DNA of 64,000 nucleotides from Spirochaetia bacterium (GCA_963675665.1 OY776510.1:4416001-4480000), one strand, 5' to 3'. Shown: positions 33,704 through 61,583, counted from the stretch's first letter. Notes: generated from the sequence alone by a model not told the origin. Program-made: numbers and translations.

Positions 33704-34037
33704 ATTAAACTCCTAACGTTGTCTTCCAGAGACCATAGTCATGCCTAAAACCCATCTCTATAATATCATTAATTATGAGAATCCTCCATTTTCTTTTAAC
33801 ATATACCATAACAACATATATTATTTCCTATACATGGCACATATTTCATAAGATTGTAAAATTCCATCTTTTTATACATAACGACGATTTGAACGCAGCC
33901 CATAGAAGTAAAACTTATAAAAGTAGGGCAACCCCTTACTCGGCAAAGAGTTATTTCACGGTAGGTTCTATCTAACAATAAAACAAAATGGCCGAATGCG
34001 CAAATATGATAGCATTTCGGCCGCATAAGGAGTTTTT

Positions 34038-35192
34038 ATGCGTTACAGAGAACCTTTTACACTATTTCTCAGGAAGTTACCCTCAGGTAAGCGAATTTGG
34101 TACTATCAGACATACGATAAAAATAACAAACGTACCAGCGCTTTTTCTACAGGGAAGAAATCAAAGACAGCAGCTAAGGCCTATTGCTTTGATTTATTAA
34201 AAAAGGATTTGCTGATCCCAATAAGACTCAGAAGGATAAACTTTATGAAATATTCTGAAAACTGGTGGCTTTGGGATGAATGCGAATATCTGAATTATCT
34301 CAAAAAGAGAAAAACGATTTCAAAATCATATGCACATACCGCGAGGGTAATGCTTGGAAAGCATATACTGCCATACTTTGAAAAAAAGTACTTATCAGAC
34401 ATCACACCGTATGATATCGAGAAATGGCTTGATACTTTTACGGCTAAGGGACTTTCAAACGCGACTGCCAACCTCGGATTAGCATTCTTAAAAATAATGC
34501 TCAAAGAAGCCGTCAGACGCGAATTGATTACTGACGATCCTTCAAGTTCAATTATGCCGCTTAAAACAGAATCAGTAGAGCGAGGGGTTCTTTCCCAGGA
34601 TGAAGTTTCAAAATTATTTGACCTTGTGAATAAAAAGCAAATATGGGCCAATGATATTTATTATTATGCAAATCTCTTATCTGCCTGCACCGGCATGCGG
34701 CTTGGCGAAGTCCTTGCTGTACGCGGCGAAGTACTTAAAGAAAATCATATTCTTGTTGACAAGCAATTTACAAAAAACTTCGGGCTCACTGATACTAAGT
34801 CACACCATGCAAGAAAGGTAATTATCCCTGAACAGTTAATGACCGAGCTTGTAAATTTTTCTGAACAGAATAAAGGCGGGTATGTCTTTTCAACCGACGG
34901 CGGAAAGCTTCCGGTATACCCTGACACATTAAGACGCTCATTATTCAAGGCATTCAAGGCTATTGGAATTGATGATGAGCAAAGACGCGAACGAAACATC
35001 TGCTTTCACAGCTGGCGTCACTACCTGAACACAACTCTTAGAAGTAATAATATCACAGATGGAAAGCTAAGAGCGCTTGTCGGCCATGCATCATCCAAGA
35101 TGACCGAACACTATACTCATTTTGACACTGATGATTTTAAGGACATTCAGGAAATCCAGAATAAAATAATAAATTTTAAAAAAGTAGGGTAA
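34038..35192 (+). CDS. Tyrosine recombinase / phage-type integrase
   Basis: TGMRLGE (R), TK (K), FHSWRH (HxxR), VGH, HY (Y); N-terminal arm-binding-like region; no recognisable IntI-specific insertion. Confidence 0.93.
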   Translation: MRYREPFTLFLRKLPSGKRIWYYQTYDKNNKRTSAFSTGKKSKTAAKAYCFDLLKKDLLIPIRLRRINFMKYSENWWLWDECEYLNYLKKRKTISKSYAHTARVMLGKHILPYFEKKYLSDITPYDIEKWLDTFTAKGLSNATANLGLAFLKIMLKEAVRRELITDDPSSSIMPLKTESVERGVLSQDEVSKLFDLVNKKQIWANDIYYYANLLSACTGMRLGEVLAVRGEVLKENHILVDKQFTKNFGLTDTKSHHARKVIIPEQLMTELVNFSEQNKGGYVFSTDGGKLPVYPDTLRRSLFKAFKAIGIDDEQRRERNICFHSWRHYLNTTLRSNNITDGKLRALVGHASSKMTEHYTHFDTDDFKDIQEIQNKIINFKKVG

Positions 35193-35269
35193 CCCCTACC
35201 CTAACTCAATATAAAAAACTGGTAGAATAAGTACAGTCTGCCGGTTCTTTTTTTATAAGGAGGTTTGGA

Positions 35270-35524
35270 ATGAAAGCATTATTGACAATCGAAGAAGCAG
35301 CGGAGCTTACAAAACTCAGCGTAAAAACCCTGTATACATACGCGGAAAAGGAAAAAATACCGCATATCAAACTTGGGCGCAGGGTTTTGTTTGAAGAAAA
35401 CAAACTGGAAGAATGGGTATCCAGTCAAAGAGTTGAACCAACGAATGAAACAGAAAAGATTACTGCTTCTGAGAATAACACCACAGAGGATGGATTTGAA
35501 AACGATACAGGAGGCTCCGCCTGA
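35270..35524 (+). CDS. Excisionase-like HTH_17 DNA-binding protein
   Basis: LLTIEEAAE.....KTLY......IPHIKLGRRVLF. Confidence 0.88.
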   Translation: MKALLTIEEAAELTKLSVKTLYTYAEKEKIPHIKLGRRVLFEENKLEEWVSSQRVEPTNETEKITASENNTTEDGFENDTGGSA

Positions 35525-35782
35525 TGAAGAAGAAATATCCTACGGTTGAAAAAGCAAAGAATGACCTCAAGTCTCCTAAAAACAAGTGCGACCATGCAAA
35601 AACTACCCGAAATAGAAAATGCAAAAAATCATGTAAAATCTCTGTAGGGATTCTTTTCCGAAATTATCTCCTTCATTTATTTCTGCTGACGAATCAATTA
35701 AATGCAAGATCTGTTCACAAAATTATTAAATTCATTATATGGAATTCCCGATCCCATACCCTTCCAAGAAAACAGAAGAATA

Positions 35783-35808
35783 AACCTGACGGCGCCAGCC
35801 GCCAGGTT
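35783..35808. terminator. Probable intrinsic terminator between convergent genes
   Basis: AACCTGACGGC-GCCA-GCCGCCAGGTT hairpin just past the stop at 35817. Confidence 0.55.
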
Positions 35809-35816
35809 AAAATGGC

Positions 35817-36077
35817 TTACTTACCGTACTGTGCAGGTGCTGAATCTGCAACACCAGCAATAGCACTTGAAAGCGGACACAGAGAACAGCGCCTGTCTCG
35901 GCAATTGCTGCAGATGTTATTGCATTTCTGCATAGAGCTAAAAGCAGTAACTGCAAGATTCAGTGTTTGCGTCATTGGTTTGTTTAATGCCCACGCGAGC
36001 CGCCTAAGAATGAAAGCCGTTTCGGAACTGATTTGGGGAGTATAAACCCTATGTTTTGGTTGTTGACTCTGATACAT
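35817..36077 (-). CDS. Small hypothetical protein, RHH-like with Cys-rich tail
   Basis: GGAGG RBS; YTPQIS...LRRLAWAL.KPMT; C..C.....C..C. Confidence 0.65.
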   Translation of the reverse strand: MYQSQQPKHRVYTPQISSETAFILRRLAWALNKPMTQTLNLAVTAFSSMQKCNNICSNCRDRRCSLCPLSSAIAGVADSAPAQYGK

Positions 36078-36134
36078 AATGTACCTCCGTTTAGTGATTT
36101 GTTTTACGGACGAACAAAGGATTTACCTCCCTTA

Positions 36135-36262
36135 CTTGCCGCGCTTAACCGTTCCCGACCAGCCTTCATCTGGCCATGTCAAGGCCGACCGGAGGGAGCC
36201 CGCAGGGCCGAAGGGCCTTTACCTGGACAGATAAGGCGGTACAATGAGAGACGTGCGGAAGC
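36135..36262. promoter_or_regulatory. Long hairpin with promoter elements (Frpo-like ssDNA promoter candidate)
   Basis: TGTCAA arm (36177-36182) pairs with the TTTACC arm (36218-36223); TACAAT at 36240-36245 faces a mismatched segment. Confidence 0.55.
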
Positions 36263-36308
36263 AATGTTTGTTAAAGGATTGTTCTTTATATTATTTCAGA
36301 TTGAATCA

Positions 36309-36662
36309 TCACCTGTTGCCGGCCCGCCGACGTTTGTTGATAGTATAGATTACTATATCAAGAATCATCTGCCACAAAATTTTAGCCTTTTCGCTTTCAG
36401 AAATCAGAATTCCAAGTTTTAAAAAGGAGTAGAAATCAAAAACACCAAGGCTTGGCTCCTTTTTGATGTTAACGAAATACATTTCGTCGACATCAGATTC
36501 GGAAATGACTAATTTCAACTCCTGCAAAGCTTTACCCCGTAAAACCGCGCAACCGTTTTGTTTAAGCTCATCTTCGTTCTGAGGAAGATAACTATCAATA
36601 GTTCTGGGGCTTACCTCAAAAAAATCGGTCAACTTCTCTTTGGTAAGAACAGACTTATCCAT
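36309..36662 (-). pseudogene. Internal fragment of a DNA-binding protein
   Basis: FFEVSPRTID.YL....DEL..NG..VLRG; appears to lack both termini. Confidence 0.45.
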
Positions 36663-36679
36663 TTAGTTGATGGTATGGA

Positions 36680-37119
36680 TTCCGAGCGCTTTATTTGTAT
36701 TTGAATCCAGCTTCTTTTATTGCAGTATGTTTAAAATCAAGCTGTAAATTATCGATTCTGTATGATCTGTCAGGACCATCAGAAATATATTTATAATGAG
36801 CAGGTACCTATGTAAATAAACCAAGGTAGTTCAATGCAGTATTCCCCGAAGGCTGAATCCGCCATTTAAACTTACGCGCTATTGCATTGGCAACTTGTTC
36901 GATATTACGGCTCAAGTCCAGATTCAGAAGCTGACTAAACTTCGGATAGTCGTAAACACCGGTACAGACACGGCAGATAACACCCTTTTTAGCTAATCCA
37001 GAAAGAGATTTTCTAACATTAATATCCGTAAAATCTGCAACGAAATCATTCTTGGTAAAGGCTCACCCCCTACCGCGGCTATAAATTCTTGCAATTACTT
37101 TATCTGTAACAGATTGCAT
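36680..37119 (-). pseudogene. DUF6088/AbiEi-like type IV antitoxin with in-frame stops
   Basis: MQSVTDKVIARIYSRGRG*AF...RKSLSGL.KKG.I.RV..GVYDYPK...QPSGNTALNYLGLFT*VP. Confidence 0.7.
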
Positions 37120-37222
37120 AAGCTATTGTTACTCCATTTTTTCACAAAAATATATAAATTTTTGTGAATTTTTTGAGGCATCAATTTTCGCCAGCGCCGA
37201 CGTTTTTCCGGCAATTGCGGTA

Positions 37223-38038
37223 TCATCTCATAAACCGCTCCACAGACATGGTCTCGGTATCAATTACTACAAAGACCAGAGTTCCTGTTTGACCTGGTTG
37301 AATTACAATCGTGTTATCTACTTTATTCTTCCATTTTCCGCTTACATCAGGTGATTCATGGATGTGGCCATGTAATGTGAATAAGGGTTGTCTGTCCTTG
37401 ATGAAATCATATACTGAATCTGAACCGACTGTTCTACCATCCATACATACATCTAATCCGAGACTCGATGGCGGCATGTGAATGATATAAACAACCTTTT
37501 CATTACCGGATTTCGGCAAATTCTCAAGTTCACCATGTATGGTAGGCAATTTTTTTACATATCCAGGCCAATCGGTAATTTCAGTCCATCCGCCTTCAGT
37601 CGAAAGCAACGCAGTTCCGTATTGCATCTGAAGACTATAATCATCATGATCCATTCGGCATCTGTCTTTCAATCTGAACGGGTAATCGACAACCCAGTTC
37701 ATTCCAATAAAATCAATATCTTTTATCGTTACCATATTCTGAGCTATATCATGGATATAATCAAATCGACTGCATTCGTCCTGAAAAAGTCCGTCAAATA
37801 TCTTTAGATCATCATTTCCCGGGTAACACAGATAATGGACTCTTAGTTGCTCAAATCTTTCAAAATGCTTATGCAGTTTATCCTTTATAAAAGCATCCTG
37901 TTTGTGCAGCTCAATATTCTTAGGAAACATATCTCCACCGTTAATCACAACGTCAGGATGTAATTCATCAGCAACATTCACTAATTCATCATATTTTCGA
38001 TTATCACCGTGAAGATCTGTAGTGTATATTATTTTCAT
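37223..38038 (-). CDS. Calcineurin-like metallophosphoesterase
   Basis: DLHG, GGD, PGNDD, H.PP, HGHIHE. Confidence 0.9.
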   Translation of the reverse strand: MKIIYTTDLHGDNRKYDELVNVADELHPDVVINGGDMFPKNIELHKQDAFIKDKLHKHFERFEQLRVHYLCYPGNDDLKIFDGLFQDECSRFDYIHDIAQNMVTIKDIDFIGMNWVVDYPFRLKDRCRMDHDDYSLQMQYGTALLSTEGGWTEITDWPGYVKKLPTIHGELENLPKSGNEKVVYIIHMPPSSLGLDVCMDGRTVGSDSVYDFIKDRQPLFTLHGHIHESPDVSGKWKNKVDNTIVIQPGQTGTLVFVVIDTETMSVERFMR

Positions 38039-38046
38039 TGCGCTCT

Positions 38047-38604
38047 TTAATCGTCGAATATTCCACCGTTAGCGGCTCTACCATGAAACTTATGCTTTTT
38101 GACCAAAGCGCCAAGCGGATCATTTGATTCCAATATTTCTCTTTTTGAAAAAAGATTAAATGTATTTGATAAGAAGGTTTCTTTATCTTCGACTTTGTCA
38201 TATTCATTAAGAATTGATATTCCCTGATACAAACTGCTGAAACGTCTATGCCATAGGTCCCGTTCCGTTTGAGCCTTGTCCAGCCATTCAATGAGATCAA
38301 GCCTGTCAATTGAGTTCAATCTTTCTTCTGCTTCATCTTCTGAATTGAAAATACCGATATATATTGAATGCCAGATAACGACATAAACCATGCCGTCATT
38401 TATTTCTTTCGGCCACCGACATTTCTCACAATACAGCGTTTCAGTAATAATCCCCGTTCTTATCCTGCAGCCTCGTGTTATATCTCCCGGTTCATATGTA
38501 TCCATAGAATTTTCAAAAACTTTGGTCTGAACAGAATTGATTTCATTGCCGCAATCAGGACATTTTATCGAATCCCCCAGTATTAATGTGTCGAATAATC
38601 CCAT
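38047..38604 (-). CDS. Hypothetical protein with Zn-ribbon (CPDC...CEKC)
   Basis: MGLFD N-terminus; two CxxC pairs; operonic with the phosphoesterase. Confidence 0.7.
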   Translation of the reverse strand: MGLFDTLILGDSIKCPDCGNEINSVQTKVFENSMDTYEPGDITRGCRIRTGIITETLYCEKCRWPKEINDGMVYVVIWHSIYIGIFNSEDEAEERLNSIDRLDLIEWLDKAQTERDLWHRRFSSLYQGISILNEYDKVEDKETFLSNTFNLFSKREILESNDPLGALVKKHKFHGRAANGGIFDD

Positions 38605-38647
38605 ATTTTGCCCCCCACTTTTTATATTCTTTCTACTATTACCAAGT

Positions 38648-38836
38648 TTAATCTATAATTTTATATCTACCTTCCGCTGCTTCTTTCATGCTTTTTTTCA
38701 GCCCCTTTATAAGTTTCTTATTCTCAAGGATTTCCGCCATCTCTTCGTCACTCACGGAATTATTCTCTAATTTTGATAAATAGGGATTTTTTATTGCATT
38801 CAAAAAATCATAATGTTCTTTCATCCTCTTTCTCAC
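38648..38836 (-). CDS. Chimeric mini-antitoxin or antitoxin fusion remnant
   Basis: N-part resembles BrnA 17594-17824; C-part resembles antitoxin 9558-9800. Confidence 0.55.
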   Translation of the reverse strand: MRKRMKEHYDFLNAIKNPYLSKLENNSVSDEEMAEILENKKLIKGLKKSMKEAAEGRYKIID

Positions 38837-39099
38837 CTATAAGAATATAGTGTTACGCAGTTTTATACGTTACTAACGTATATTTCATTATAACCTGAAT
38901 CTAATAAAAATAATTCCGGTGTTTTGCATTTTTATACCGGGGTGACAGTTGGCAAATTTATTTTAATTATCTCATGACTCATCTTTAAAGCCATCTACTA
39001 AAACATATTGTAATACAAGAATCAGTAAATATCAAACATTCATGATGTTGTCCGCCACATAACCTTGACAACTTCATATATTAGTATAGTATTAGTGGC

Positions 39100-39699
39100 A
39101 TGAATACTATGAGAGATAGAGCCAAACAACTCCTCATTCTTAAACCTCTGCTCAGCACCCAGGAAATAACCGCAGAAGGCATAGACCGTAAAACGATAAA
39201 GAGAATGACAGACGATGGAGAACTCATCCGTGTATCAAGAGGGCTTTACTGTTCACCGGATTATATCCCCGGCAACAATCATTCGATAATAGAAGCACAG
39301 AAAATAATCAAACAAGGTGTTGTTTGCCTTCTGTCTGCCCTGTCCTTTCACGAGATAGGAACACAGAATCCGTCACAGGTATGGATGGCTATTCCTAAAA
39401 CAGCCTGGAAACCTGCGATAGAATCGCTCCCGGTGCAAATAGTCAGATTTACCGGGCCGGCATATGAAGAAGGAATAATTGAAGAAAAAATTGTAAATGA
39501 TAATATCAGAATTTATAACATTCCTAAAACGATTTCCGACTGCTTCAAATTCAGAAATAAAATCGGCCTTGAGCCGGCTATAGAGGCGCTGAAGGATGTG
39601 ATAGGTAATAAGCGCACCACTGTAGATGAGCTGCTCTATTATGCTGATATATGCAGAGTAAAAAATGTAATCACGCCATATCTGGAAAGTATAATATGA
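39100..39699 (+). CDS. AbiEi-family type IV antitoxin
   Basis: LIRVSRGLY; CLLSALSFH; KTISDCFKFRNKIG; TTGACA promoter upstream. Confidence 0.88.
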   Translation: MNTMRDRAKQLLILKPLLSTQEITAEGIDRKTIKRMTDDGELIRVSRGLYCSPDYIPGNNHSIIEAQKIIKQGVVCLLSALSFHEIGTQNPSQVWMAIPKTAWKPAIESLPVQIVRFTGPAYEEGIIEEKIVNDNIRIYNIPKTISDCFKFRNKIGLEPAIEALKDVIGNKRTTVDELLYYADICRVKNVITPYLESII

Positions 39700-40040
39700 A
39701 AAAAGATCCTGTAAACATACCTGCATCAATACTATCCCGCCTTCTGAATTACAGCCGCGATCAAAAAACTGACTATCAATCACTACTGAATAAATACATT
39801 GCGGAACGGTTTTTGTATCGGCTTGGTCAAACTGAATACAAAGAATCATTCATTCTGAAAGGCGCGTATATCCTTACCATAATGCTTGAAGATCAGACAT
39901 ATCGAACAACAAAGGATATAGATTTTTAAAAACCGGTAATACGGAAAAAGAAGAAATCAATAACAGCAATTTGTAATACTATATGCCCTGAAGATGGAGT
40001 AACCTTTGATGCAGGTTCTATTAAGATAGAGGACATTCGG
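39696..40040 (+). pseudogene. AbiEii nucleotidyltransferase toxin, frameshifted and truncated
   Basis: ERFLYRL..FILKG...RTTKDIDF then stop. Confidence 0.8.
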
Positions 40041-40041
40041 G

Positions 40042-40245
40042 ATGTTTCTGACCAATCAGAAAGCAAAAACCGGAAGACCTCCGATTACAATAAAAATCAG
40101 AAAACTCATCATTGAGATGAAGAAGCTTAATCTTCTCTGGGGTTACCGCCATATTTCGGGTGAGCTAGATAAAATCGATATTGATGTCTCAAAGGACACC
40201 GTTGCAAGGATTATTCAGAAGGGCCGAAAGTTCTTCCGTACATAA
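40042..40245 (+). pseudogene. Transposase/integrase-core fragment
   Basis: GRPP...LI.EM...N.LWGYR.I.GEL.K....VS..TV..I. Confidence 0.65.
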
Positions 40246-40265
40246 AAAAGCAAGCTTGCTTTTTT

Positions 40266-40293
40266 TGCCCAGAACTGGACTCGAACCAGTACG
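40266..40293 (-). other. 3' fragment of a tRNA (probably tRNA-Leu), att-site relic
   Basis: Minus strand CGT-ACTGG-TTCGAGT-CCAGT-TCTGGGCA equals a T-arm plus 3' acceptor strand; no 5' half. Confidence 0.65.
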
Positions 40294-40571
40294 TACGGTG
40301 CAACTTTTTGAGTTAGACAATAGAGAATAACGTTGTCCGTGAAGACACTAGACCCTGAACTCAGTCTGTGTCCTCATGTAGTTTATATAGTGCAGTATAT
40401 AGCAGCATAAGAAGTGCTTATGCGGTAAGATTTCCATATAAGCCTTCTGGGTTTGTATAATTAAGGCGTCAGTATCGGCGTCGACAGGTTATTAATTTTA
40501 TCGACTATATAAATACTGCCCAGGTAAATAAAACTAACCAACGGGCTTGAAATCCTCCCGATGTAAAAAAG

Positions 40572-42052
40572 CTGATATGATGTGACCCTTGTCAACAGTT
40601 AAATACTTTTTCCTGCTTAACCTCCCGACATCCGGGCAGTAAGAAAGATAGAGAAGTTTATTACGCGGCGATAGACCACTCTGGTATTCGCGGATTGGTT
40701 ACCGCAGGTCAATGGGATCGTCGGGAGCTTCCTCTGTCTACGGACAAGGATAAATAAATATATTGCCTTCAGCTTTTTACAAGGATTCTCCGTTATCGCT
40801 TCCGCTTCTCTATCCATCCTTCCACCCGGATACAATTTCATTTATTCAATTCTCAGCTTAAAGCTGTTTGACCAACCATCATTCCCCAGATGAAACCAGC
40901 CAGCTCTCGTGCTACTGCAGTAACAATTTTCGGACTTGCTTTCCATCTTTGACTTATTTCTTATTGAGTCTGATTCCGGCTTTATCAGCATAGGCGATTA
41001 TTTCCAGCTCCTGCCCTTTCCGCTTTTGAGAGAGTCTTTTCGATGGCCCATAATGACGATAATGCCAACCAGCCTCAATTAGTAGCATCCTCAGACGGGA
41101 GTTGCCTGCCTTTGTGATACGCCCCTGTTTCCTCATCTCTCCACTTGAATGCTCTGAAGGGACAAGACCCATATATGCCATAAACCCCTCAGCTTTTTTG
41201 AAACGCCTAAAGTCTCCGATCTCTGCCACAAAGGTTAAAGCGGATAATGTGCTGATCCCTTTGAGGCATTTCAGCTTTGATACTCGTTCTGCATACTGGG
41301 CTTCTGTGCTGATCTCCTCAATTCGTTCGGTGATTCTTTCAATTTTTGCTTCCATCTCCAGTATGGCCGTGTAATATTCGTTGAAAACTTCCCTGTGGAT
41401 GTCCTCCTCAAAGATTAGAGTTTTCATCCACCTGTGAAAGATTCCAGTCCAGTATCTATTACTGGTAGGATACTTCTTTCCTAATCGAAGCAAGAACTGC
41501 ATCATTCGCTGTTTCTGTCTTTTTAGATCTTTCCGCATATCGTTGCACATTCTCAAATAATCTCGAACCACTTCATCTGAACGGGTTGGAATGTAAACAT
41601 TGACAATCTCCTGGTTTCTTAATGCCTTTGCCAGCAAGACTGCATCACGACTGTCTGTTTTAATCCTATCACCGGGTTTACGTGGAAGCATTGAGGGCGC
41701 GGCAACATAGCAGGATATTTCCATCTCTTCAAGCTGTCTGTAAAGTGTAAAACCGGTTGGGTCTGCTTCGTAACAGCAAATGATATTGGCTGATCTATCT
41801 TTCAGCTTTGTGAAGTACTTTTTGATTCCACCAGGTTCATTTCTGATCTGTCTTTCAAACTCGATGGTTCGGCTATTGTCTCTGATGACCGCTAAAGAGA
41901 TAGTTTCTTTGTGGACATCCATTCCAACATAAAATAAACTGTTCATTGTGACCTCCGTTGATTTGTATGTGGCGTGCTTGCATTTAGGTGTAATTTATTA
42001 TGCGGGCTAATCTACGATATTGCAAACACGGGGGTCACTTCATATTGTCTAC
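40572..42052 (-). mobile_element. IS110-family (IS1111-group) element
   Basis: Subterminal IRs ATATGATGTGACCC (40575-40588) and GGGTCACTTCATAT (42032-42045); long 3' non-coding region. Confidence 0.8.
40870..41946 (-). pseudogene. IS110 DEDD recombinase with C-terminal frameshift
   Basis: GMDVHK, YEA, KTDSRDA, GLVPSEHSSG; ORF stops at 40954, and the terminal VTAVARELAGFIW lies in another frame. Confidence 0.82.
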
Positions 42053-42388
42053 GGGACGCGCATCAATTGACTCATTCAACACTGCCGTGAGTCTGAACAG
42101 GGTAGTCTGCCAGTCTGAACGAATCAGCGGATACATTTTTCCGGTATTGTCCAATTTATGCCGATCGGAATCCCAAACGGAGTCTGAAGAATCACTTTTC
42201 AAGCAATTATCCCGACCGGGAATCCGGATAAGCGTATACAGAATTCAACCTGATTTTTATTAAACAAAAATGATTTCAATACATTATATTACCACCTAAA
42301 TCGATTCGTGGTAAGAAGAAATCATGGGCAAATGACTCTATAACAACAATTACAGATAATACTATTATTTATGTCGAACTGGTAATCT

Positions 42389-43885: not shown

Positions 43886-43957
43886 AATTGATCTGTGTTA
43901 TATTTTGATAGTAACATAAAGGGGAAACTGGTTGTGTAAAAGAAGTGTAAAAGCCAT

Positions 43958-51805: not shown

Positions 51806-52127
51806 CCTCGTTATAACTGTAAGCGTAAGATATAAAATTCATTTATGCAATCAAATAAAAAATGTTTATAAAATACCTGTTTTAATTAATACCTACAACC
51901 TTCGAGGAAACAGCGGTCTTGATCTTATTCTCCGGTTGATATACAATCAGCTAGAACCATATATAGGTATCTTTATTATTATAGTTGAAATGTTTTTCTT
52001 TTTTAAAGAAGCATATAGATCATTTCTATCCTGCCTTTTTATTATTTCTTACTAATCAGCAAAAATAACCAAGAATCATCTGTTTGACTGGTAATACAAC
52101 GTTTTCCCGGACAGGTTCTGGGCAGGA

Positions 52128-52385
52128 GTGATTATGTCGAAAAAGCTTTATGTAGGAAACCTCAATTTTACAGTTAATGAGTCAGAACTGAAAGAACTTT
52201 TCTCGGAGTACGGGGAAGTGAATACTGTAAATATCATAACTGATAAAATATCAAACCGATCCAAGGGATTTGCTTTTGTAGAAATGCTGAAGGATTCATC
52301 TGCAAATGAAGCAATTTCAGCCTTAAACGGAAGGGAATTTTCAGGTCGTGAAATAAAAGTCAATGTAGCTAAAGATAGAAATTAA
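52128..52385 (+). CDS. RRM RNA-binding protein
   Basis: RNP2 LYVGNL; RNP1 KGFAFVEM. Confidence 0.93.
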   Translation: MIMSKKLYVGNLNFTVNESELKELFSEYGEVNTVNIITDKISNRSKGFAFVEMLKDSSANEAISALNGREFSGREIKVNVAKDRN

Positions 52386-52503
52386 TTATAGCGACAGAGA
52401 ATCTGTATACATTTTGAGCTCACAATGATTGTCTATTCAGCGTGAGCTGCTCAAAAAACGATTAAATCCTGTAGAATAAATCTGCAGGTATCCGGAGAAT
52501 CTT

Positions 52504-52761
52504 ATGAACGGTATTGGAAAAAAATTATTAAATTTCTTGGAAAACAGGAAATTATGGGTCTGGCTCCTGGTCTATCTGGGGTTGACGGGCATTATATTCG
52601 GCTTGTCCAGTTTGATTTTATACTTATTGGGAATAGTTCCGTGGATCGGCGTCCTGGCGTTAATTGCCACAGGACTTATCTGGGGTTTTATTCAATTTTC
52701 CATCCATAGAAACACAGATAAACCAGAAGTAGAAACTTCAGATAAAAAAGAATCTGAATAA
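52504..52761 (+). CDS. Small two-TM membrane protein
   Basis: GGAG RBS; two hydrophobic helices. Confidence 0.65.
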   Translation: MNGIGKKLLNFLENRKLWVWLLVYLGLTGIIFGLSSLILYLLGIVPWIGVLALIATGLIWGFIQFSIHRNTDKPEVETSDKKESE

Positions 52762-52882
52762 AGTAATTTCATATCTCTCTAACTTCCTGAACCAAGTTTT
52801 CAGGGAGTTCCAAATTTGCATCGGAGGGTTTCATTTACACGGTGTGAACTGATTAACATTATATATAAGCAAAGGGCATAAT

Positions 52883-53248
52883 ATGGAATTGAATGAGAAA
52901 CAAATAAAAAAAGAGATTCTGTATAACGAAGAAAAACTATTGAGAAATGAAATTAGAAATGACGCAAAAATGATAACGGAATTAACTGAAAATAATTGTA
53001 TTGAGATCAGTGAGACCGGAGTCCAGAGTATTTATCAGTTCGGACAGACACTTAAAGAAATCGACGGAGTTTTATATATCACAAGTGACGAACCTCAATT
53101 AATCAACCTATCTGAAGATTGTAAATTATTAATTTATATTGCTGTAAAAGTCAAAAAGAACACGAGGTCAATGATAAATTGCAGTTCAATATGGAAAATG
53201 AAGAATGAAAAGTGGAAGGCAGTATTTCAGCAAAGGACCACTCGCTGA
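52883..53248 (+). CDS. DUF4440/NTF2-like protein
   Basis: EEKLL..EIR.D...EI.ETG...SSIW.....WK.VFQQ. Confidence 0.7.
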   Translation: MELNEKQIKKEILYNEEKLLRNEIRNDAKMITELTENNCIEISETGVQSIYQFGQTLKEIDGVLYITSDEPQLINLSEDCKLLIYIAVKVKKNTRSMINCSSIWKMKNEKWKAVFQQRTTR

Positions 53249-53271
53249 TAAATTTTCCCGATGGAGTTCAA

Positions 53272-53652
53272 ATGTCCCTTATATATATTATCCTTTCCGT
53301 AATAAGCTGGATGGAACTCATTATCAGTTTTATTATCTTCATGCCCGTTCAGGCACTTCTATTTGTCGTCACATTACCGTTCGATAAACACAAGAAAATA
53401 ATGCACTATAATTCTTCTATTTTGTGTCTGGCAGTTCTTACGATGTGTCCACTTATCTCCCTTCAATATGAAGGGCGTAAAAACATAGACCGTTCAAAAC
53501 CAAATGTAATAGTAATGAACCATCAGTCGATACTTGATTTATATGACATAATTCCCGTTATATGGTCTAATAAACATTCTCATTATGGAAATATTTCCAC
53601 ATTCAAATCTTACAGGTTTTTCCTCATGAAAAGTTATATAGAACTTAACTGA
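53272..53652 (+). pseudogene. Lysophospholipid acyltransferase (PlsC-like) N-terminal fragment
   Basis: NHQSILD motif, then loss of similarity. Confidence 0.6.
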
Positions 53653-54552
53653 CCTTAAAAATGGCGGGTCCGCTATTATTTTCATGATTTCTGGAGAAAT
53701 CAGATCCAAAGTTTTTTCTAACTTGCTTTTCACACAGATTTGTATTTTCTCTTTTATTACAGGCGGAGACTTTTCTTACTTTTCTTATGCTCTCTACTCG
53801 CTGCTTTTTTCAATACCATATTCCGCGGAAGAAAGAATGTCATCTTTACAATGCTGCCTCTGATTAAGAGCAGTTAGATTGTTTTTAATCCACTTTATCT
53901 TGATAATTGGGTTTATCTAATGCTGTATAATTGTCAGATGTAAGAAGGAATTTTGATAAAGCTTCTTTATCGTACCGATAAAATTTACGTTTAAATTTTT
54001 TTGAGAAAAGGACAAACAATATACCATCCTCAAAAAAATATAATATTCCCTCATTTTATTAAGATAGATTCCTGAACGCATAACATTCCAATATAATATA
54101 TGTGCAGGATGATTAGCAGTTTTATAATAAAAATTAAAAAACAATTGTTAAAATCATCTATTATTTCTTCTTCAAGTCCATAAATTTCAATACGATTTTC
54201 AGCAAATATTTTATCCACACTAACATTACTCATATGTTTCTCCTATTTTAACATAATCAATGGTGTATAAACATAATTTTATAAATATTTCATTTATACC
54301 ACCCCAACCCTGTTGAACCCGACACCATTACGGAGCAGCAGCCTGCTATTAAGTATGATAATTCCAGGTTCTCACACCTCGGCACCGCATCGACTAATGG
54401 CACCTTGCGATATCTAATAAAAGACAACCAGCTTGATTTTATATTCCCGCTTTCCGAGGGCAAGACTGATCACAACCTGATGATCTCTGAAATAAACCTT
54501 AAGGAACAGTATATGATACTAAGCGATGAAGAGCAGCTTTACCGCGTAAGAC

Positions 54553-54864
54553 TCAAGTAAATCCATGCAACATATTCTTTTGCTCCAGGTACAGCTTAAT
54601 CTTCCGCACACCAGCCATTGAAACTACTTTATAAGACCATCGATTACCGACAAACCGCCCCCGCCTTATAACCCCAAGCAGTACATGATCAATATAAAAC
54701 ACACTACCGTAAGCGGTAACCGAGATAGTACGCTCAAAATCTGATTCATCCATTTCAACCCTGCCGACCGGCACAGGCCTGAGCCTTTGCCGCTTTCGAT
54801 ACGCCCTAAGCTTTCGCTCAGCATCCAGATAGGATTCATACAAACCGGTAAAACCAACTTTCAT
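54553..54864 (-). CDS. Small hypothetical protein
   Basis: ATG with GGGGG RBS-like run, downstream of the hairpin at 54921-55056. Confidence 0.55.
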   Translation of the reverse strand: MKVGFTGLYESYLDAERKLRAYRKRQRLRPVPVGRVEMDESDFERTISVTAYGSVFYIDHVLLGVIRRGRFVGNRWSYKVVSMAGVRKIKLYLEQKNMLHGFT

Positions 54865-54920
54865 AAAACACCCCCGATAAAAAAAGGAATTTGCCCCTAA
54901 AAAAGAGAATACTTTTTATC

Positions 54921-55056
54921 TACCGGCGGCATAACCGATACACCATAGCCTGAAGCAGGTTCAGTCAAGGCTGAAAAGCCGCAGGCTTTTTACCCGAAGG
55001 GCCTGGCCTTGACGGGTTCTGTTGCAGGATACAACAATTAAAACACCCGCTGATTA
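54921..55056. promoter_or_regulatory. Second long hairpin with promoter elements (Frpo-like candidate)
   Basis: GTCAAGGC pairs with GCCTTGAC; TTGACG at 55009-55014, TACAAC at 55030-55035. Confidence 0.5.
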
Positions 55057-55423
55057 ATGAAATACATAATTGAACTGTGTCGGGAAAAATTGATGAAGCT
55101 ATATGACAAAATATTGAATAGAAGCCTGCCCCTCCAGTTAAAGGAGGGGGCTGTTATTATAAAAACAGATATTTTCTTCGTATTAAATTACCAATCTTTA
55201 TGGTTCATACTACTGAAAAACATGAAGCATTATTGGACTGAAACACATTGTACAAGAAAAGGTCTCTCTCTTTCCCCTCCACACTCCCCATTTTTAGTCA
55301 GATTATGATACAGCGGCCAAGATTTTTTACTTCATAAAAAATTGCTTTGTACTACTCCTGACTACCTTTATATACAATTGAACGTATGATAATGAAGTAT
55401 ATGAGTAAGCGGTAATTCTTACC

Positions 55424-56977
55424 CTATGCCTTAATCAGCCCAGGAGTCAGGTTGAACGGAAGCAGTGCTTCATAATCAGCCGGTGTTTTGCAATTTGGAA
55501 GCTGTCTGAAAACGTAGTAGAAATAATCATAGACCGAGAGGTTCTGCATTTTAGCTGATTCAACAAGGCTGTACAAAATTGCTGAAGATTCGGCGCCGTG
55601 TTCTGTATCGGAAAACAACCAATTCTTCCTGCCGATCACAAAAGGCCGGATTGCGTTTTCGGCAATGTTGTTAGACGACGTAAGCAGCGGGTCTTCCAAA
55701 TACAAGTTTAACTGCTTCCAATTATCCAGCGTATAGGCAATAGCTTTCCCGAAGGCAAGTGTAGGCGGCGTTGCCGCTGCATATTGTGTCAGTAATTCAA
55801 ATAAGGATTTCAGAATCGGAGAAGCCCTGTTCGTCCGTTGTTTTTGAAACCCTTTCTTAGAAAAATCAGCTCTTAAATCTTCAAGCTCAAAAAGTTTCTT
55901 AATCAATTCGAGTATCTGTTTTGCATCCGGAGATTTAGACAGCTCCCAATACTTGTAGAAATATCTACGGGCATGAGCCCAGCACAAAACATGACGAATA
56001 GATTTATTTCCTTCATCGCTTAGTTTTTTCAATGCAGTGTGATAAGCCTCATAATCATCAGTCTGCAGCCAGCCGGAATATTCTTGCAGGAAATCATACG
56101 GAACTTTATGAGAGCGGCTTGTTTCATACTGAAACACAACAGATTTTTTATCAGTCTCTCCACCAAGAAATACCCACATCCAGGATTTATCCTGTGCTTT
56201 ACGACCTTTTTCTTTCAAAACCTGCACCCGGGTTTCATCAGCATTGATTACTGGACCGTTTTTAATATTATCTTTAAGCAGCTCATATAGCGGCTTGCAT
56301 CTTTCAGCGCATTTAATTGCCAATGTGCTCAGTGTTGCACGTGGAATATCCGCACCTATCGCATTCAACCTCTTACTCTGTCGATAAAACGGCAGCGCAT
56401 ATTCAAACTTCTCATTTATAATCCATGCAAGCAGGCTTTCATCGGCAATACTTCCGGAAATGAGGTGTTTAATCCCTTCTGCTGTCTGTACTCCGGATGA
56501 ATCATCAGTTGTTCCTTCACAATTTCGGCAGACATATTTTTTCTTTATCTCACGTCTGACGACTACTTTCGCAGGAACGATGCAGAGTCGTTCAGATACA
56601 TCTTCACCTATACAAACCTTCTCGGTACCACAGGCACAGGTTTTATCTTCTTCATCGATATCGTATTCAACAATCTCGCGAGGCAGGTCTTCAGAAAGCG
56701 CTTTTCTTCCCGAGTTCTTTCGAACTGTTTTTGTGTGGGCTTTTACTTCAAGGGTTTCTGATTCTATTTCATCCTGCTGCTCAAATGCGGAATCTTCTGC
56801 TTCGTTGAAAAGGGACGCCTGCTTCTTATCTTCACTGGTAAATTTCTCAGATTTTGTTCCGAAGTGAAGAGTCTGCAGGAGGTGTACCAGTTCTTTCAAT
56901 TCGGTAATCTGATTATCCTGATTTTGGACTGTTTGTTTGAGTTGAGCAATTTCGTTAAGCAAGGCTTCAGTACTCAC
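55424..56977 (-). CDS. tnpC: IS66 transposase TnpC
   Basis: FGTKSE; Zn finger; NADET; CWAHARR; NN.AE.AIRPFVIGRKNWLF. Confidence 0.94.
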   Translation of the reverse strand: MSTEALLNEIAQLKQTVQNQDNQITELKELVHLLQTLHFGTKSEKFTSEDKKQASLFNEAEDSAFEQQDEIESETLEVKAHTKTVRKNSGRKALSEDLPREIVEYDIDEEDKTCACGTEKVCIGEDVSERLCIVPAKVVVRREIKKKYVCRNCEGTTDDSSGVQTAEGIKHLISGSIADESLLAWIINEKFEYALPFYRQSKRLNAIGADIPRATLSTLAIKCAERCKPLYELLKDNIKNGPVINADETRVQVLKEKGRKAQDKSWMWVFLGGETDKKSVVFQYETSRSHKVPYDFLQEYSGWLQTDDYEAYHTALKKLSDEGNKSIRHVLCWAHARRYFYKYWELSKSPDAKQILELIKKLFELEDLRADFSKKGFQKQRTNRASPILKSLFELLTQYAAATPPTLAFGKAIAYTLDNWKQLNLYLEDPLLTSSNNIAENAIRPFVIGRKNWLFSDTEHGAESSAILYSLVESAKMQNLSVYDYFYYVFRQLPNCKTPADYEALLPFNLTPGLIKA

Positions 56978-57015
56978 ATAAGAATTTTACCACGGTTAAA
57001 TTCGAGTGTGAAGCC

Positions 57016-57360
57016 CTAAACGCGGGAATAATTTAATTGCTTATGCGCTTTAAAGAAATCTATTCCATCAAGCAGCATCTTCAACTCTTCGAACTTTATC
57101 TCCCTCGCGTCTTCTTCCGTTTCCGGCCAGGGGAACTTATTCTTTTCAAGTCTTTTCTGCCAAAGACAGAATCCGTTCCGATCCCAGTAAACGATTTTAA
57201 GCAGCTTTCTTTTGCCGTTGCAGAATAGAAACAGACTTTTTGAGAACGGGTCGTTCTGCATTATATTCTGAATCTGCAGGCTCAGACCGTTCACACCTTT
57301 TCGTAAATCAGTTTTCCCGGGTCTGACGAAGTAACGGTATTCTGAGTAATCGATAATCAT
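57016..57360 (-). CDS. tnpB: IS66 accessory protein TnpB
   Basis: TDLRKG..GL; LFLFCN; YWDRNGF.LWQKRLE. Confidence 0.93.
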   Translation of the reverse strand: MIIDYSEYRYFVRPGKTDLRKGVNGLSLQIQNIMQNDPFSKSLFLFCNGKRKLLKIVYWDRNGFCLWQKRLEKNKFPWPETEEDAREIKFEELKMLLDGIDFFKAHKQLNYSRV

Positions 57361-57656
57361 TCGAGCTCCCCGATTACTTTAAGAACTGATTTCAGCCCGG
57401 CTTCATCAAATCCGGCAGTTATTGATATTAAGAACTTTTTGGTTTTTATAACTATTGGGGCGGCTGAGAAGATTCCATTTGGTTTTATTTCAACAACTGA
57501 AGAACTTCCGGGTGCTTCCTGATTGCCAATAATTTTCCTGTTTTTATAAAACGTGTTTGGATGAATCCCGATCTCTTTACAGAACTCTAAAATCGTCTTA
57601 CCGCTTTGCTGTTGTTGCTCAATGACTTCTTCCCAATTATTTATTACCTTTCGCAT
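57357..57656 (-). CDS. tnpA: IS66 accessory protein TnpA
   Basis: W...I.....SGKT..EFC...GI...TFY. Confidence 0.85.
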   Translation of the reverse strand: MRKVINNWEEVIEQQQQSGKTILEFCKEIGIHPNTFYKNRKIIGNQEAPGSSSVVEIKPNGIFSAAPIVIKTKKFLISITAGFDEAGLKSVLKVIGELE

Positions 57657-58579
57657 TTATTTCCTCCTGGTTAATAATTCCGGAGGATAATACATTTTTA
57701 TATTTTAGCAAGAAGGTAAGAATTACCGCTTACGTATATGAACCTATTTCTTCCTATATATAAGAAATAATAGAAATAAAGATAAATAGTATATAGAGAG
57801 AGCTACAATTCATCATAAAAAACCGGTTTGTTTACACAAAAATACAAGACCATATAGGAAACAATCATTTATACCGGAAAAAACACGCCCCGAGCGGTTA
57901 AATCTAAAACCAAAAAAATATAGCTTATGTGCCCGGCGGAGGTTGAACCGAAGGTTTTACCGTAGCCGGACGATGATATGTTCTGCAATAACAGAGTATT
58001 ACAACAATTAAGACGAAGGGCCCGCGGTGTGAAACACTGCGGTGCGTAGGCCTTTTTACGGCTGGAAGCCGGACGCTCCCCCCCCAGCGGGGGGGGACGG
58101 GAGAGGGGGGAGAATACAATAACTTTCATTACAGCGCTGGTCCGGATGGAAGCCGTAAAAAGCCGGGCCGAAGATAGCAGCTGTTCAATAGCCTTGAATG
58201 GACACTAAAGCATAGCACTGATTGTGCTTCCCTAGATGACGGATAAAAGCCGTAACCACCCCGCTTTCTATTGGACGGCTGTTTGATGAGGGCCGTAGAG
58301 TTCCAGGTATCGTTTCCCTACCCCTGCCACGCATGGACGCGCGGCGACTACACGTGCCGGCAAAGGAGTTTATTAGCAGACCCGGCAAAGGGAGCGCGGC
58401 AGCGCGGTTGCCGGAAATAGTAGCTCACGGCCGCAGAGCAAAAACGGGAGCGCTGTCTTCGGCGCGGGTTTTTGCGGCCATGTTGGGAAAGAAGCCGACG
58501 GTCTGCAATAGCAGTCCGTGAGGCGGGTTATGAGCTGGCTACGGGGGAATTTATACGGGCGGAGCCGGTGATTTTAAAA

Positions 58580-59248
58580 TCACTCATCAACAAATCTCAA
58601 CCTATCTTTTATGAGATTTCCTAGACCATCAATTTTCACTAAAGATATTTTGTCGAAATCGGTTCTAAAAGCCAATATAGCTTTAGCATCTCCTTGAATA
58701 TTCAAATAAATCATAAAACACTCGTGATAGTATTTATGAATATCAGCTAAGCATTCTGATATTTTTTTAGTAAAAAATATTTTATTATATTTGTATTCTG
58801 AATCAAAAAGATTAAATTGCTGTTTTATTGATTCATAACCCAATACATTTACAACCCTTACATACGTTTCGTTTTTATCCGATGATTCTATAATCAATTT
58901 TTTATGATATTCTGGGATTGGATTACCATTTAAAAATTCTATCAAAGATTCATTACTATACTGATTCAAATCATCATACAATGTCTTCTTATCTGAATAG
59001 AAAAGTACCATACTTCTGAAAGTTACTACATATTCCCATAATGTTGGTAATATCTCAAACTCTTTTTGATTTAATTTTGATATCCTATCAAATTCTAAAT
59101 TCAATTTAAGTTTATATTTTTCAGTTAATCTATTGATATGATGCTCAAAGATCCTTTTTCCAAAGAATTTGATTAAAGCAAAAACGACAACTGCACCACC
59201 ACCTACAGCACCTAAAAATTGAATAACTGCAACTGCTATATTACTCAT
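58580..59248 (-). CDS. Hypothetical protein with N-terminal TM and helical body
   Basis: AAGGA RBS; hydrophobic Gly-rich N-terminus. Confidence 0.7.
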   Translation of the reverse strand: MSNIAVAVIQFLGAVGGGAVVVFALIKFFGKRIFEHHINRLTEKYKLKLNLEFDRISKLNQKEFEILPTLWEYVVTFRSMVLFYSDKKTLYDDLNQYSNESLIEFLNGNPIPEYHKKLIIESSDKNETYVRVVNVLGYESIKQQFNLFDSEYKYNKIFFTKKISECLADIHKYYHECFMIYLNIQGDAKAILAFRTDFDKISLVKIDGLGNLIKDRLRFVDE

Positions 59249-59292
59249 TAATAATGATCCTTATAATTTTTTAAAATTAATAAATACATAAT

Positions 59293-60033
59293 TTAATTTT
59301 TGAGTCTGTATGCTTTTATAGTAGCCTTACCTTTACCTGGATAAGTTTTCATCTCAAACTCTTTTAATTTTTCAATGATTCTTGTTAATTTGGGTTCACC
59401 GTAAGTACGTGGATCAAATTCTGGAAGCTGACGTTTTATATATGAACCTACTGCCGCGGTATTAGCCCATCCATCTTCATCCTGATATTTTTCCCAACCC
59501 TTAGTTAAAATAGGAATCAAGGATGTTTGTTCAGATTCTATATTATTCGTTTCTGTAATTACTGTTTTTTCAGTATTGCTTGAATCATCCGAAAAAAGAT
59601 TCTCTGTTAAAATGAAATCATCACAAGCATTCTTAAATGAAATCGGAGTTTTCTTTTCTCCAACACCAAAAACGTACATTTCTGATTCCCTTAATCTTGA
59701 TGCTAATTTTGTAAAATCACTATCACTGGAAACTATTACAAAAGCATCATATTTTTCAGAATACAGTAAATCCATTGCATCAATAATCATTGAAGCATCT
59801 GTTGAGTTTTTACCTTGTGTATATGCAAATTGTTGAACAGGCTGTATAGCTAATTCATTAAGAATAGTCTTCCAGTTTTTTAGATAATCGCTTGACCAAT
59901 CGCCATAAGCCCTTTTACAAACAATGTGACCATGAGCGGATACTTCACTTAATATAGCTGAAAGCTTTGTATACTGTGCATTATCAGCATCTATTAGTAC
60001 TACAATTTTTTTTGAATCTTCTAAATCCTTCAT
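59293..60033 (-). CDS. NYN-domain (LabA/DUF88) RNase with OST-HTH
   Basis: LIDADN; RAYGDW; GKNSTD; SSDSDF; FDPRTYG. Confidence 0.92.
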   Translation of the reverse strand: MKDLEDSKKIVVLIDADNAQYTKLSAILSEVSAHGHIVCKRAYGDWSSDYLKNWKTILNELAIQPVQQFAYTQGKNSTDASMIIDAMDLLYSEKYDAFVIVSSDSDFTKLASRLRESEMYVFGVGEKKTPISFKNACDDFILTENLFSDDSSNTEKTVITETNNIESEQTSLIPILTKGWEKYQDEDGWANTAAVGSYIKRQLPEFDPRTYGEPKLTRIIEKLKEFEMKTYPGKGKATIKAYRLKN

Positions 60034-60044
60034 TTTATCAACCC

Positions 60045-61220
60045 TTAAAAGTCTTTCATCCTAGGACGCATTACATTAACAAATATATTTAACCAATCTT
60101 TAAAAAATGATTTTATTTGCTCTCTATTTTTGGGATTAAAGACATCCTCACAAGACAATCTGACACCAGCGGCATCCCCTTCATCCCAAGACCAAATGAC
60201 ATCTTCACCAAGCTCTTTGCGTATCATATCTTTATCTTCACTGAGAGCCCTATAAATTCTATTACCCTCGGTATCGTTCTGACAACGGAAATAAACACCT
60301 ACACGTTTTTGGCTTTTCATAAAATATGCACTGATCCATGCTCTACGAGTTTTCCCTGGATAAACATATAGATTTTGACCATTTGCAGGATTTGGTAAAG
60401 GTTGACCAGGATCATCAAATGATAATTCCGCAATAAGCTCTGACCAAAATTTAGAATAAAATGAGCGTTCAGATTCCCACTCATCCGAATAGTTACTTTT
60501 CTCTTCAGAAGAAGATGCACTGGATAATACTAAGCCATGAGGTATATCAACAGTTATCTTTTGAAGTTCAACGGTTTTTGTAATGATTCTTGGCATCAAG
60601 ATCATTCCGAGAGTTTCATTCTTATAAACAGCTAACTCTACCATTCCAAAAGTAAAATTAAGATGACCAGCTGAAATTAGAAACTCTGCAATACCTGAAG
60701 CACCTTCTCGAATGCCATCACCAACAATAAGAAGTAAGAAATTACCCTTTTTAAGATTCATGCTTACAGTATCAACAAAATCAGATTCATTTAATAAGAA
60801 TTCAGAATTAGACTCCTTCGCTATTTCATAAAGAGTATTCCCTTGTCTTTTCAATCGACGGTTTAATTCTCTTTGTAGATCCTCATAAGCCCATTTTGAG
60901 AGTTCTTTTGCATAATCAAGAATTTGTGCAACAACTACTCTTCTTGCTTCAGGGTTTCTCCATAATTTTGTTTCAATAATTACAATTTCACCAGATGGCG
61001 TAATCATAAAAATATCGAGGGGGCCTACTGGTGTGTTTAATTCAGTGCATACGGGGATTACAGGATTATAAGATTCATCAATTTCACTGATAGGTAAACT
61101 TGCAGGATATTTAAAAACCAGATTCTGGATTGTTAATTCATCAACATCTTCTAATTTCTGCAGTAATGTAACTTGATCATTTTTGATCCAGATTGGCTCA
61201 CCATAAGCTGAATTCTTCAT
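60045..61220 (-). CDS. PD-(D/E)XK (NucS-like) nuclease + DUF4268-like domain
   Basis: E..IQ; LDI.....G...IIETK; VVAQILDYA; C-terminal FW.EL...ELG....W. Confidence 0.78.
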   Translation of the reverse strand: MKNSAYGEPIWIKNDQVTLLQKLEDVDELTIQNLVFKYPASLPISEIDESYNPVIPVCTELNTPVGPLDIFMITPSGEIVIIETKLWRNPEARRVVVAQILDYAKELSKWAYEDLQRELNRRLKRQGNTLYEIAKESNSEFLLNESDFVDTVSMNLKKGNFLLLIVGDGIREGASGIAEFLISAGHLNFTFGMVELAVYKNETLGMILMPRIITKTVELQKITVDIPHGLVLSSASSSEEKSNYSDEWESERSFYSKFWSELIAELSFDDPGQPLPNPANGQNLYVYPGKTRRAWISAYFMKSQKRVGVYFRCQNDTEGNRIYRALSEDKDMIRKELGEDVIWSWDEGDAAGVRLSCEDVFNPKNREQIKSFFKDWLNIFVNVMRPRMKDF

Positions 61221-61445
61221 ATACTTTTCCTTTTTTATAATTACATACTTATATAAACAATTATAACTTATTAAATACCATATCCGCAATTATAATTAAA
61301 AGGTGAGTACAGTTATGATACCATTTAGCCAATGGAATTGGGAGGAATTAGGCCGAATAAGACTCTTTACAGAGTAATAAGATTTGACTAATTCCTTATC
61401 CTATAGTAATATAGATGAATAGATAAGAACCTACGGAATTGAGCG

Positions 61446-61583
61446 GTTTAACGACGTTTTGAGTAGCGAAACCGGCCGAGTCTTCGAGGCTTGGCGCAGT
61501 TCTGGAACGTAGCGCGATCAGCGCGGAGTGTCTCTGCCAGAACTGTGACAAAGGTTTTGACTACTCCAAATCTCTTGTTATAC
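61446..61583 (-). repeat. attC site 22 (also the right junction of the integrative element)
   Basis: GTTTAAC...GTTATAC. Confidence 0.9.

Follow-up and report, generated by a model that had tools for sequence, protein, structure and literature searches.

An integrative island with a lambda-type recombination module at the attC repeat of a spirochaete chromosomal integron

Integron cassette arrays tend to be regarded as the domain of the integron integrase (IntI) alone, and the known intruders are IS1111-attC elements, group IIC introns and the PLE satellites of Vibrio. The stretch of DNA analyzed here (64,000 nucleotides from a Spirochaetia bacterium, GCA_963675665.1 OY776510.1:4416001-4480000; hereafter the window, with positions counted from its first letter) consists mostly of such an array, and within it an island with its own tyrosine integrase gene is bordered on both sides by sequence of attC, the repeat that bounds the cassettes. 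How an island with a recombination module of its own comes to lie at this site is the question that the locus raises. The best explanation, to which a probability of roughly 0.85 is assigned, is that the island is a non-conjugative integrative island that moves, or has moved, by lambda-type recombination and whose attB is the 3' end of attC in double-stranded form. An earlier note on this DNA had proposed an integrative element that uses the integron attC repeat as its attachment site, and the junctions, the presence of IntI and the recurrence of the arrangement in relatives uphold that proposal.

The host integron and the island junctions

The window corresponds to G000:C1:4416001-4480000 of a 5.15-Mb single-contig genome (G000). 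The integron integrase gene, intI, lies on the plus strand at G000:C1:4525299-4526318, which is 45 kb past the window edge, and its product scores 392.5 bits against TIGR02249 (cut-off 265). The array holds approximately 40 co-oriented attC sites over about 107 kb, from G000:4417885 to 4524199. Each attC is an imperfect palindrome of about 137 bp, and the sites keep one orientation throughout, with a spacing of 0.6-4.5 kb. The cassettes have their open reading frames (ORFs) on the minus strand and diverge from intI; read in the cassette direction, the attC starts ...ATAACAAGAG... and ends ...TCAAAWCGTCG|TTA.... An IntI that scores above the cut-off and is divergent from an array of attC-bounded cassettes makes this a sedentary chromosomal integron.

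The island spans window 33893-61448, the 27,556 bp between two 14-bp blocks. The blocks form a direct repeat that is identical at 13/14 positions, the sole difference being position 9 (A versus T). By sequence and motif count, the int-proximal block (33879-33892, the attL core) is an attC half-site that consists of L'-R' only, while the distal block (61449-61462, the attR core) forms the 3' end of a complete attC; neither block is assigned to a strand. The offset between the blocks (61449-33879) is 27,570 bp, the distance after which the earlier note had seen a full attC resume. At the int-proximal junction, ACATAACGACGATTTGA at 33876-33892 is followed by unique non-attC DNA. At the distal junction, GTTTAACGACGTTTTGAGTAGC begins at 61446 and runs on into a complete attC of about 137 bp (61446-61585, minus strand), which folds as a long imperfect hairpin with the 14-bp block as its 3' stem.

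The partial site had been taken for the first bases of an attC. The minus-strand orientation of the cassettes makes the 17 bases at 33876-33892 the last ones of an attC (L'-R'), after which the next cassette starts. A cassette that encodes YefM and YoeB (cassette X) has the attC whose 3' (L'-R') end the island occupies, and that attC remains whole; the next cassette (cassette Y) retains a half-site only. One complete attC is kept, as the earlier note had claimed, and it is found at the far junction. The 150 nt of the island next to the int-proximal junction fold no better than shuffled sequences (z = 0.21) and are not an attC hairpin. The island therefore has no attC of its own, and its description as an integron cassette was rejected.

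In the window, the motif of the identity block, TAACGACGWTTTGA, is matched 20 times when up to 2 mismatches are allowed, where 1.34 matches would be expected, and 0/100 shuffles reached 20 matches to the 14-bp motif, which is therefore not due to chance. A chance duplication was considered and rejected. Exact copies of the 14-mer number 24 in the genome, all on the plus strand and all within the array, which bears out the suggestion that the array offers many equivalent landing sites. The 36 matches to the opposite attC end are, every one, inside the array as well. The GC content is 37-43% across most of the island, with values of 33-34% in the bins 52001-54000 and 60001-62000, and 28-36% in the surrounding array.

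The recombination module and a proposed mechanism

The int gene (34038-35192, plus strand) starts 146 bp from the left 14-bp block and encodes a lambda-type tyrosine integrase of 384 aa with three domains (PF00589, E = 8e-14; SAM-like domains; phrog_1). The catalytic residues R221, K254, H324, R327, H350 and Y359 are invariant across 27 aligned integrase homologues. In the AF2 model (pLDDT 89.3), two strands (8-13 and 19-24) and a helix (43-55) at the N terminus precede the core-binding and catalytic domains, and the top Foldseek matches are full-length lambda Int (1z1b/1z1g, about 380 columns aligned) and Tn1549 Int. A Pfam scan of the island proteins gave no match to the arm-binding domain in the integrase. 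The adjoining xis gene (35270-35524, plus strand) encodes an excisionase-family helix-turn-helix (HTH) protein of 84 aa that is a candidate recombination directionality factor (PF12728; phrog_66; TIGR01764, 46.4 bits versus a cut-off of 28.8, which is a family assignment only). Its counterpart in the island of a related genome, G010, is an 83-aa HTH_17 protein. The set of catalytic residues, the three domains, the direct repeats, the adjoining int and the excisionase-family gene are the features of a lambda-type element. The earlier account of a 14-bp duplication that flanks an int and xis module is thus borne out, as the sequences read as described and the genes are confirmed by profiles.

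Approximately 150 bp at each island end are conserved among relatives. An alignment of four attL sequences identifies conserved blocks in the P' arm (33893-34037, plus strand), namely AAAAGTAGGG..CCCTT, GTAGGTTCTATCTAA and TATGAYAGCA, and the P arm (61290-61448, plus strand) contains the conserved blocks TATGAYAGCA, ATTTGACTAATTCCTTATA and AATAGATAG..CTACRGAAKTGAGCGG. When four attL and four attR sequences are aligned, the motifs common to both arms are TATGAYAGCA in direct orientation and GTAGGTTCTATCTA in inverted orientation. The two pairs of inverted motifs that the earlier note had listed are present at the positions it gave: the first (33936-33951 versus 61362-61377, 14/16 identical) is only partly conserved in the aligned attL and attR sequences, and the second (33959-33974 versus 61420-61436, with one indel) is well conserved in them.

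The proposed mechanism follows that of lambda-type elements. The attB site would comprise the L' box, the spacer and the first bases of the R' box of the host attC. Int would bind core sites around an overlap of about 7 bp (CGACGWT) with a predicted crossover, and it would also bind arm-type sites in the P and P' arms, for which TATGAYAGCA, present in both, is the candidate. Int may then recombine the attP of the island with any attC that carries the 14-bp block, and Xis would direct excision. On integration the island would supply a new GTTAAAC R' box at the distal junction, and because of this the distal junction would still be a complete attC afterwards. Recombination between an A-type attP and a T-type attC would leave the A/T difference if that base lies within or to the right of the exchange region. 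The difference between the two 14-mers fits such a cross, and both the A- and the T-variant of the 14-mer occur in the array.

Recurrence in relatives and rival explanations

The earlier note had proposed to compare the junctions of close homologues, and these fall at the same attC position: integrases that are 73-88% identical to that of G000 share the attC junction, and only distant ones (<=46%) are at tRNA or transfer-messenger RNA (tmRNA) genes. On the int-proximal side, ATAACGACGATT followed by a matching P' arm is found in G010, on two contigs of G003 (C50 and C24) and at a metagenome locus (L087), with integrases that are 85%, 73%, 88% and 78% identical, respectively; the int of G003 C24 is broken by a stop. 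G010 and both G003 contigs read ...ATAACGACGATTTAAACGCAGC... and then continue into the P' arm as in G000, and L087 reads ...ACATAACGACGATT and then continues into a related arm. On the distal side, ...CTACRGAAKTGAGCGGnnnAACGWCGATTTGAG... leads into a full attC in G010, G003 C22, G003 C3 and G005 C121. The cassette-side DNA at the int-proximal junction is different in all five elements (G000, G010, G003 C50, G003 C24 and L087), and run X14 contains a related junction joined to yet another flank. Judged from these flanks, the five elements look like separate integration events, because IntI should not swap that flank alone when no complete attC lies upstream. A search of genome contigs with the single integrase matched two G003 contigs only, and viral contigs searched with the integrase contained only relatives that are 35-39% identical.

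The G010 island has both ends on one contig, about 22 kb apart, in an array that ends at an intI. It is 71-92% identical to the G000 island in nucleotide sequence across the shared parts, namely int, xis, a segment poor in ORFs, the metallophosphoesterase pair and the two arms. Its cargo differs and includes a TOTE-type primase-helicase, a type I restriction-modification system and a Fic protein.

A second lineage is represented by G044 and G071, which belong to genus g39 of another spirochaete family and whose integrases are 46% and 47% identical to that of G000. Their 36.6-kb elements are bounded by the 14-bp sequence TTAATTGGATGTTA, which is the 3' end of those genomes' own attC and ends in GTTA. 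The layout is that of G000: full attC, far element end, int end, half-site and next cassette. Both elements lie in attC clusters 0.7-1.6 Mb from intI, and in G044 this attC motif is matched a few kb from intI as well. Among their cargo, these elements encode a terminase large subunit, a portal protein, an HK97-type capsid protein and a D5-type primase. Because integrases of 46-47% identity use the equivalent 14 bp of another host's quite different attC, attC targeting is, as far as sequence comparison can tell, a habit of a lineage and not of this copy alone. The G044 element is prophage-like and heavily loaded with cargo; at G044:C1:2354221-2390840 (L074/L077/L078), phage genes are interleaved with genes for an ABC sugar transporter, GH127, AraC regulators and a RES-domain protein.

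The position of these integrases within their family was examined with a maximum-likelihood tree of 28 rows chosen from the best search matches, with internal-stop and partial matches left out. All nine attC-associated rows, seven of them at the attC 3' end and two at other positions, fall in one clade (support 95/93) that also includes three rows whose target is unknown; the labels of G287 and G312 are weak. Outside this clade and a three-row sister group of unknown target, 10/13 rows adjoin a tRNA or tmRNA gene. ARAGORN finds a tRNA or tmRNA gene at 11/30 genome loci, all of them with integrases that are <=43% identical, and at 0/12 loci with integrases that are >=46% identical. The paralogue in G000 itself (38%) is at tRNA-Pro. 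There is about an even chance that the phage-type tyrosine integrases of a whole lineage exchanged tRNA genes for double-stranded attC as their target and that their core specificity tracks the attC of each host.

Two further arrangements were seen among the relatives. At L032 (G005:C121) and L068 (G133:C177), an island end that resembles the P arm is directly followed by a P' arm and an integrase gene, with cores that are not attC-like; each of these may be either two tandem elements or an unintegrated circular form. In G232 (L072, G232:C2:1921000-1936100), 86 co-oriented copies of a 215-bp attC-like repeat extend over 155 kb.

Three other explanations of the locus were considered. It is improbable that the island goes back to one ancient insertion that spread by vertical descent or by homologous recombination between arrays and is now a fixed relic. 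The two internal insertion sequence (IS) elements and the shortened AbiEii gene of this copy, the broken int of one G003 copy and the fact that no excision product was observed in the assembled contigs of public runs would agree with it. However, five elements have different DNA next to the half-site on the int side, a flank that IntI cannot remove alone, and in another family the second lineage is found at the corresponding 14 bp of an attC with a different sequence, which a single insertion cannot give; moreover, the int frame of this copy is intact with all catalytic residues present. It is very improbable that the island owes its place to IntI, either as a giant cassette or by capture through the R' box, in which case its own Int would be irrelevant to its position. 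Such a capture would account for the GTTA R'-type box at both junctions and for the fully formed attC at the distal one, and the identity block ends 3 nt beyond what we take to be the canonical cleavage point of IntI. However, the island end contains only 14 bp of attC-like sequence that does not fold as a hairpin and hence is not an attC of its own, Int, Xis and the conserved arms stand exactly at the junctions in every copy, and the great distance of the G044 and G071 elements from intI also speaks against capture.

An assembly artefact, in which the island was misjoined into the array at attC repeats, is hardly credible. Repeats of attC do break short-read assemblies, and the G003 contigs end in them, but independent short-read contigs bridge the int-proximal junction. 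A contig of 8,309 nt from run X11, which may be the source sample, covers 31980-37500 with zero differences, and a contig of 942 nt from a second sample (X13) covers 33780-34720. In addition, G010 holds both island junctions within one 2.2-Mb contig, and in G000 the half-site at 33879-33892 continues into unique DNA, with each island arm occurring once in a search of the genome.

Several observations weigh against the preferred explanation, integration by Int at the 3' end of double-stranded attC. No circle junction or empty site was seen in the public runs, which were available as assembled contigs only. The two IS elements and the shortened AbiEii suggest some decay of this island copy. Among the relatives, G287 and G312 owe their attC label to no more than a 9-10 nt motif at a single junction. 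The junction is present in G003 C24, where 5 kb of flank contain no attC. The element of G009 (62% identical) abuts the opposite (R'') end of a complete attC, and its far end was not found on its 44-kb contig. The elements of G232 and of the metagenome locus L096 (49%) are attached at a point inside the 215-bp attC-like repeat (...CAAATTTCRCT|GAT...), and neither a far end nor an IntI was found for these junctions; simple motif searches did not find the far ends of the G312 and G232 elements within 40-60 kb, and the G232 genome (93% complete) has no integron integrase at E <= 1e-40. The junctions of G005 C189 and L088 (59-60%) and of a G133-type group (50-52%, approximately 10 loci) are not attC-like. 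L089 (66%) shares only TATAACGAC, with no array visible in its flank, and L099 (46%) is at tRNA-Leu. The core that the earlier note had reconstructed for attP, with inverted sites around a 7-bp overlap, stands in part. It fits the relatives in that the joined ends of G010-type elements form a perfect pair, GTTTAA / TTAAAC, with the 7-bp spacer CGACGAT in between, but the P-side triplet is CAC or CTT instead of TTT in 2/5 attR sequences, so that the core model of a 6-bp inverted repeat with a 7-bp spacer is inferred and the crossover position is provisional. The core base on the P' side is G in G000 and A in three relatives.

Cargo, flanking cassettes and known systems

The island contains more than 20 genes on both strands, among which no conjugation genes and no phage structural genes were found. 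Next to xis, a backbone segment (35524-36300, no strand assigned) contains no convincing ORF and is 80% identical in nucleotide sequence to the G010 island. A second segment without a convincing ORF (58019-58572) is conserved with that island at 71% nucleotide identity. An Rfam scan of the two segments gave chance-level matches only; candidates for what they are include a regulatory region, an origin and an RNA gene. An Rfam scan of the whole window found no family at the gathering score, and a group II intron was rejected for this reason. Backbone and cargo are combined in 36309-39929 (no strand assigned), which contains a 117-aa ORF and genes for a metallophosphoesterase (37223-38038), a 185-aa Cys-rich protein (38047-38604), AbiEi (39100-39699) and an N-terminal fragment of AbiEii (39651-39929); synteny with the G010 island extends across 36324-39105. 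In the region 39651-42300, the gene for the AbiEii toxin breaks off after about 92 codons, and behind it lie a transposase HTH fragment and an IS110-family gene, so that the AbiE pair looks inactivated.

The IS110-family transposase gene (40954-41946, minus strand; NF033542, 227 bits) is internal and lies 7 kb from the nearest island end. Since it is not at the ends, an IS110/IS1111-type insertion was rejected as the origin of the island. The cargo between 42389 and 54864 (no strand assigned) includes genes for a B12-binding radical SAM enzyme, a second radical SAM enzyme, a histidine kinase with a response regulator, two GT4 glycosyltransferases, a GH130 phosphorylase and an RRM protein, together with small ORFs. 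An IS66-family element follows on the minus strand (55424-57656), with tnpC at 55424-56977, tnpB at 57016-57360 and a tnpA-like gene at 57357-57656. The right-end cargo (58580-61289, minus strand) encodes a 222-aa protein, an NYN/OST-HTH protein (59293-60033) and a DUF4268 protein (60045-61289).

Cassette X (61586-62360, minus strand) encodes the YefM antitoxin (61960-62214) and the YoeB toxin (61709-61963). Cassette Y (32013-33881, minus strand) contains two ORFs at 33143-33703 and 32008-33084, the second of which encodes a Schlafen/AlbA_2 protein, and it has no complete upstream attC because its 5' boundary adjoins the island. Since the int-proximal junction is a non-folding half-site, IntI could excise cassette Y only together with the island, a predicted consequence of the insertion. 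The attC of cassette Y itself is complete by sequence (31877-32012, minus strand) and is a member of repeat families D6 and D13. It differs from the array consensus by compensating changes in both stem arms (GAAATCA with TGCATTTC), as expected if the site is selected for its hairpin. Elsewhere in the array, about 35 head-to-tail copies of an 8-bp unit (TTCGATTC / TTCAATTC) lie at window 2980-3330, just beyond an attC and inside a cassette, and near-identical cassette segments occur three times, at 12343-12826, 24401-24884 and 29106-29588 (families D5 and D7; 99-100% identity).

The island adds a lineage of lambda-type integrases to which attC would be double-stranded DNA like any other. Such a lineage would be a natural example of how an attachment site changes from tRNA to attC, and the co-variation of lineage and target makes the determinants of core specificity testable. 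Large islands (22-37 kb) that carry defense systems, metabolic cargo and phage-like modules can ride inside cassette arrays, and this has relevance for array growth, for the annotation of integrons and of attC-site clusters that have no integron integrase (CALINs) and for possible cross-talk between Int/Xis and IntI. If the proposed switch of the lineage is true, cassette arrays and orphan attC clusters would be multicopy landing pads for the defense islands and prophage-like elements of spirochaetes. As one full attC remains after insertion and the island becomes joined to the following cassette, IntI could then in principle excise island and cassette as one giant cassette, which would couple two recombination systems. 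With this locus, large chromosomal integrons are also seen in marine spirochaetes that do not belong to Treponema, the genus that the abstract of a 2013 survey named as the sole spirochaete clade with integrons (PMC3607928).

The arrangement resembles several known systems without being identical to any of them. Like an integron gene cassette, the island has a cassette on either side and a distal boundary that falls on the R' box of an attC; unlike a cassette, it has no attC of its own, is 27.6 kb long and contains its own recombination module. Mobile elements that are specialized on attC include the IS1111-attC elements and the group IIC-attC introns, which are 1-2 kb in size and move by a DEDD transposase or by retrohoming. 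In contrast, the element described here is a 27.6-kb island with Int and Xis, in which the IS110-family gene is internal and no intron is found by Rfam.

A parallel in terms of target is provided by the PLE satellites of Vibrio cholerae. According to the report on these satellites, PLE 1, 3, 4 and 5 integrate into the V. cholerae repeats (VCRs), which are attC sites, and land between different cassettes after transduction, and the PLE integrase has a serine-recombinase domain (PMC5481146). The earlier note knew of no described example of an integrative element at attC, and the PLE satellites are one. With respect to tyrosine integrases, no island or prophage with attC as attB was found in the literature, in a search that did not cover subscription journals and supplements, and the tyrosine-integrase version of attC targeting looks undescribed. 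The attachment site is in both cases a multicopy attC of a sedentary chromosomal integron, and the related G010 island likewise carries defense-type cargo. The two differ in that the recombinase of the PLE is a serine recombinase, whereas here a lambda-type tyrosine integrase with an excisionase is the sole recombinase at the junction. They also differ in host, Vibrio in the one case and a marine spirochaete in the other, and this island has no phage structural genes.

In terms of mechanism, the island is like the lambda- and P4-type islands and prophages at tRNA and tmRNA genes. These share with it a three-domain integrase and an int gene beside one junction, and their identity block restores the 3' end of the target, which parallels the completion of attC here. 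The nearest outgroup integrases do sit at tRNA and tmRNA genes. The difference is in the target, which here is not a single-copy RNA gene but a non-coding, multicopy site of IntI.

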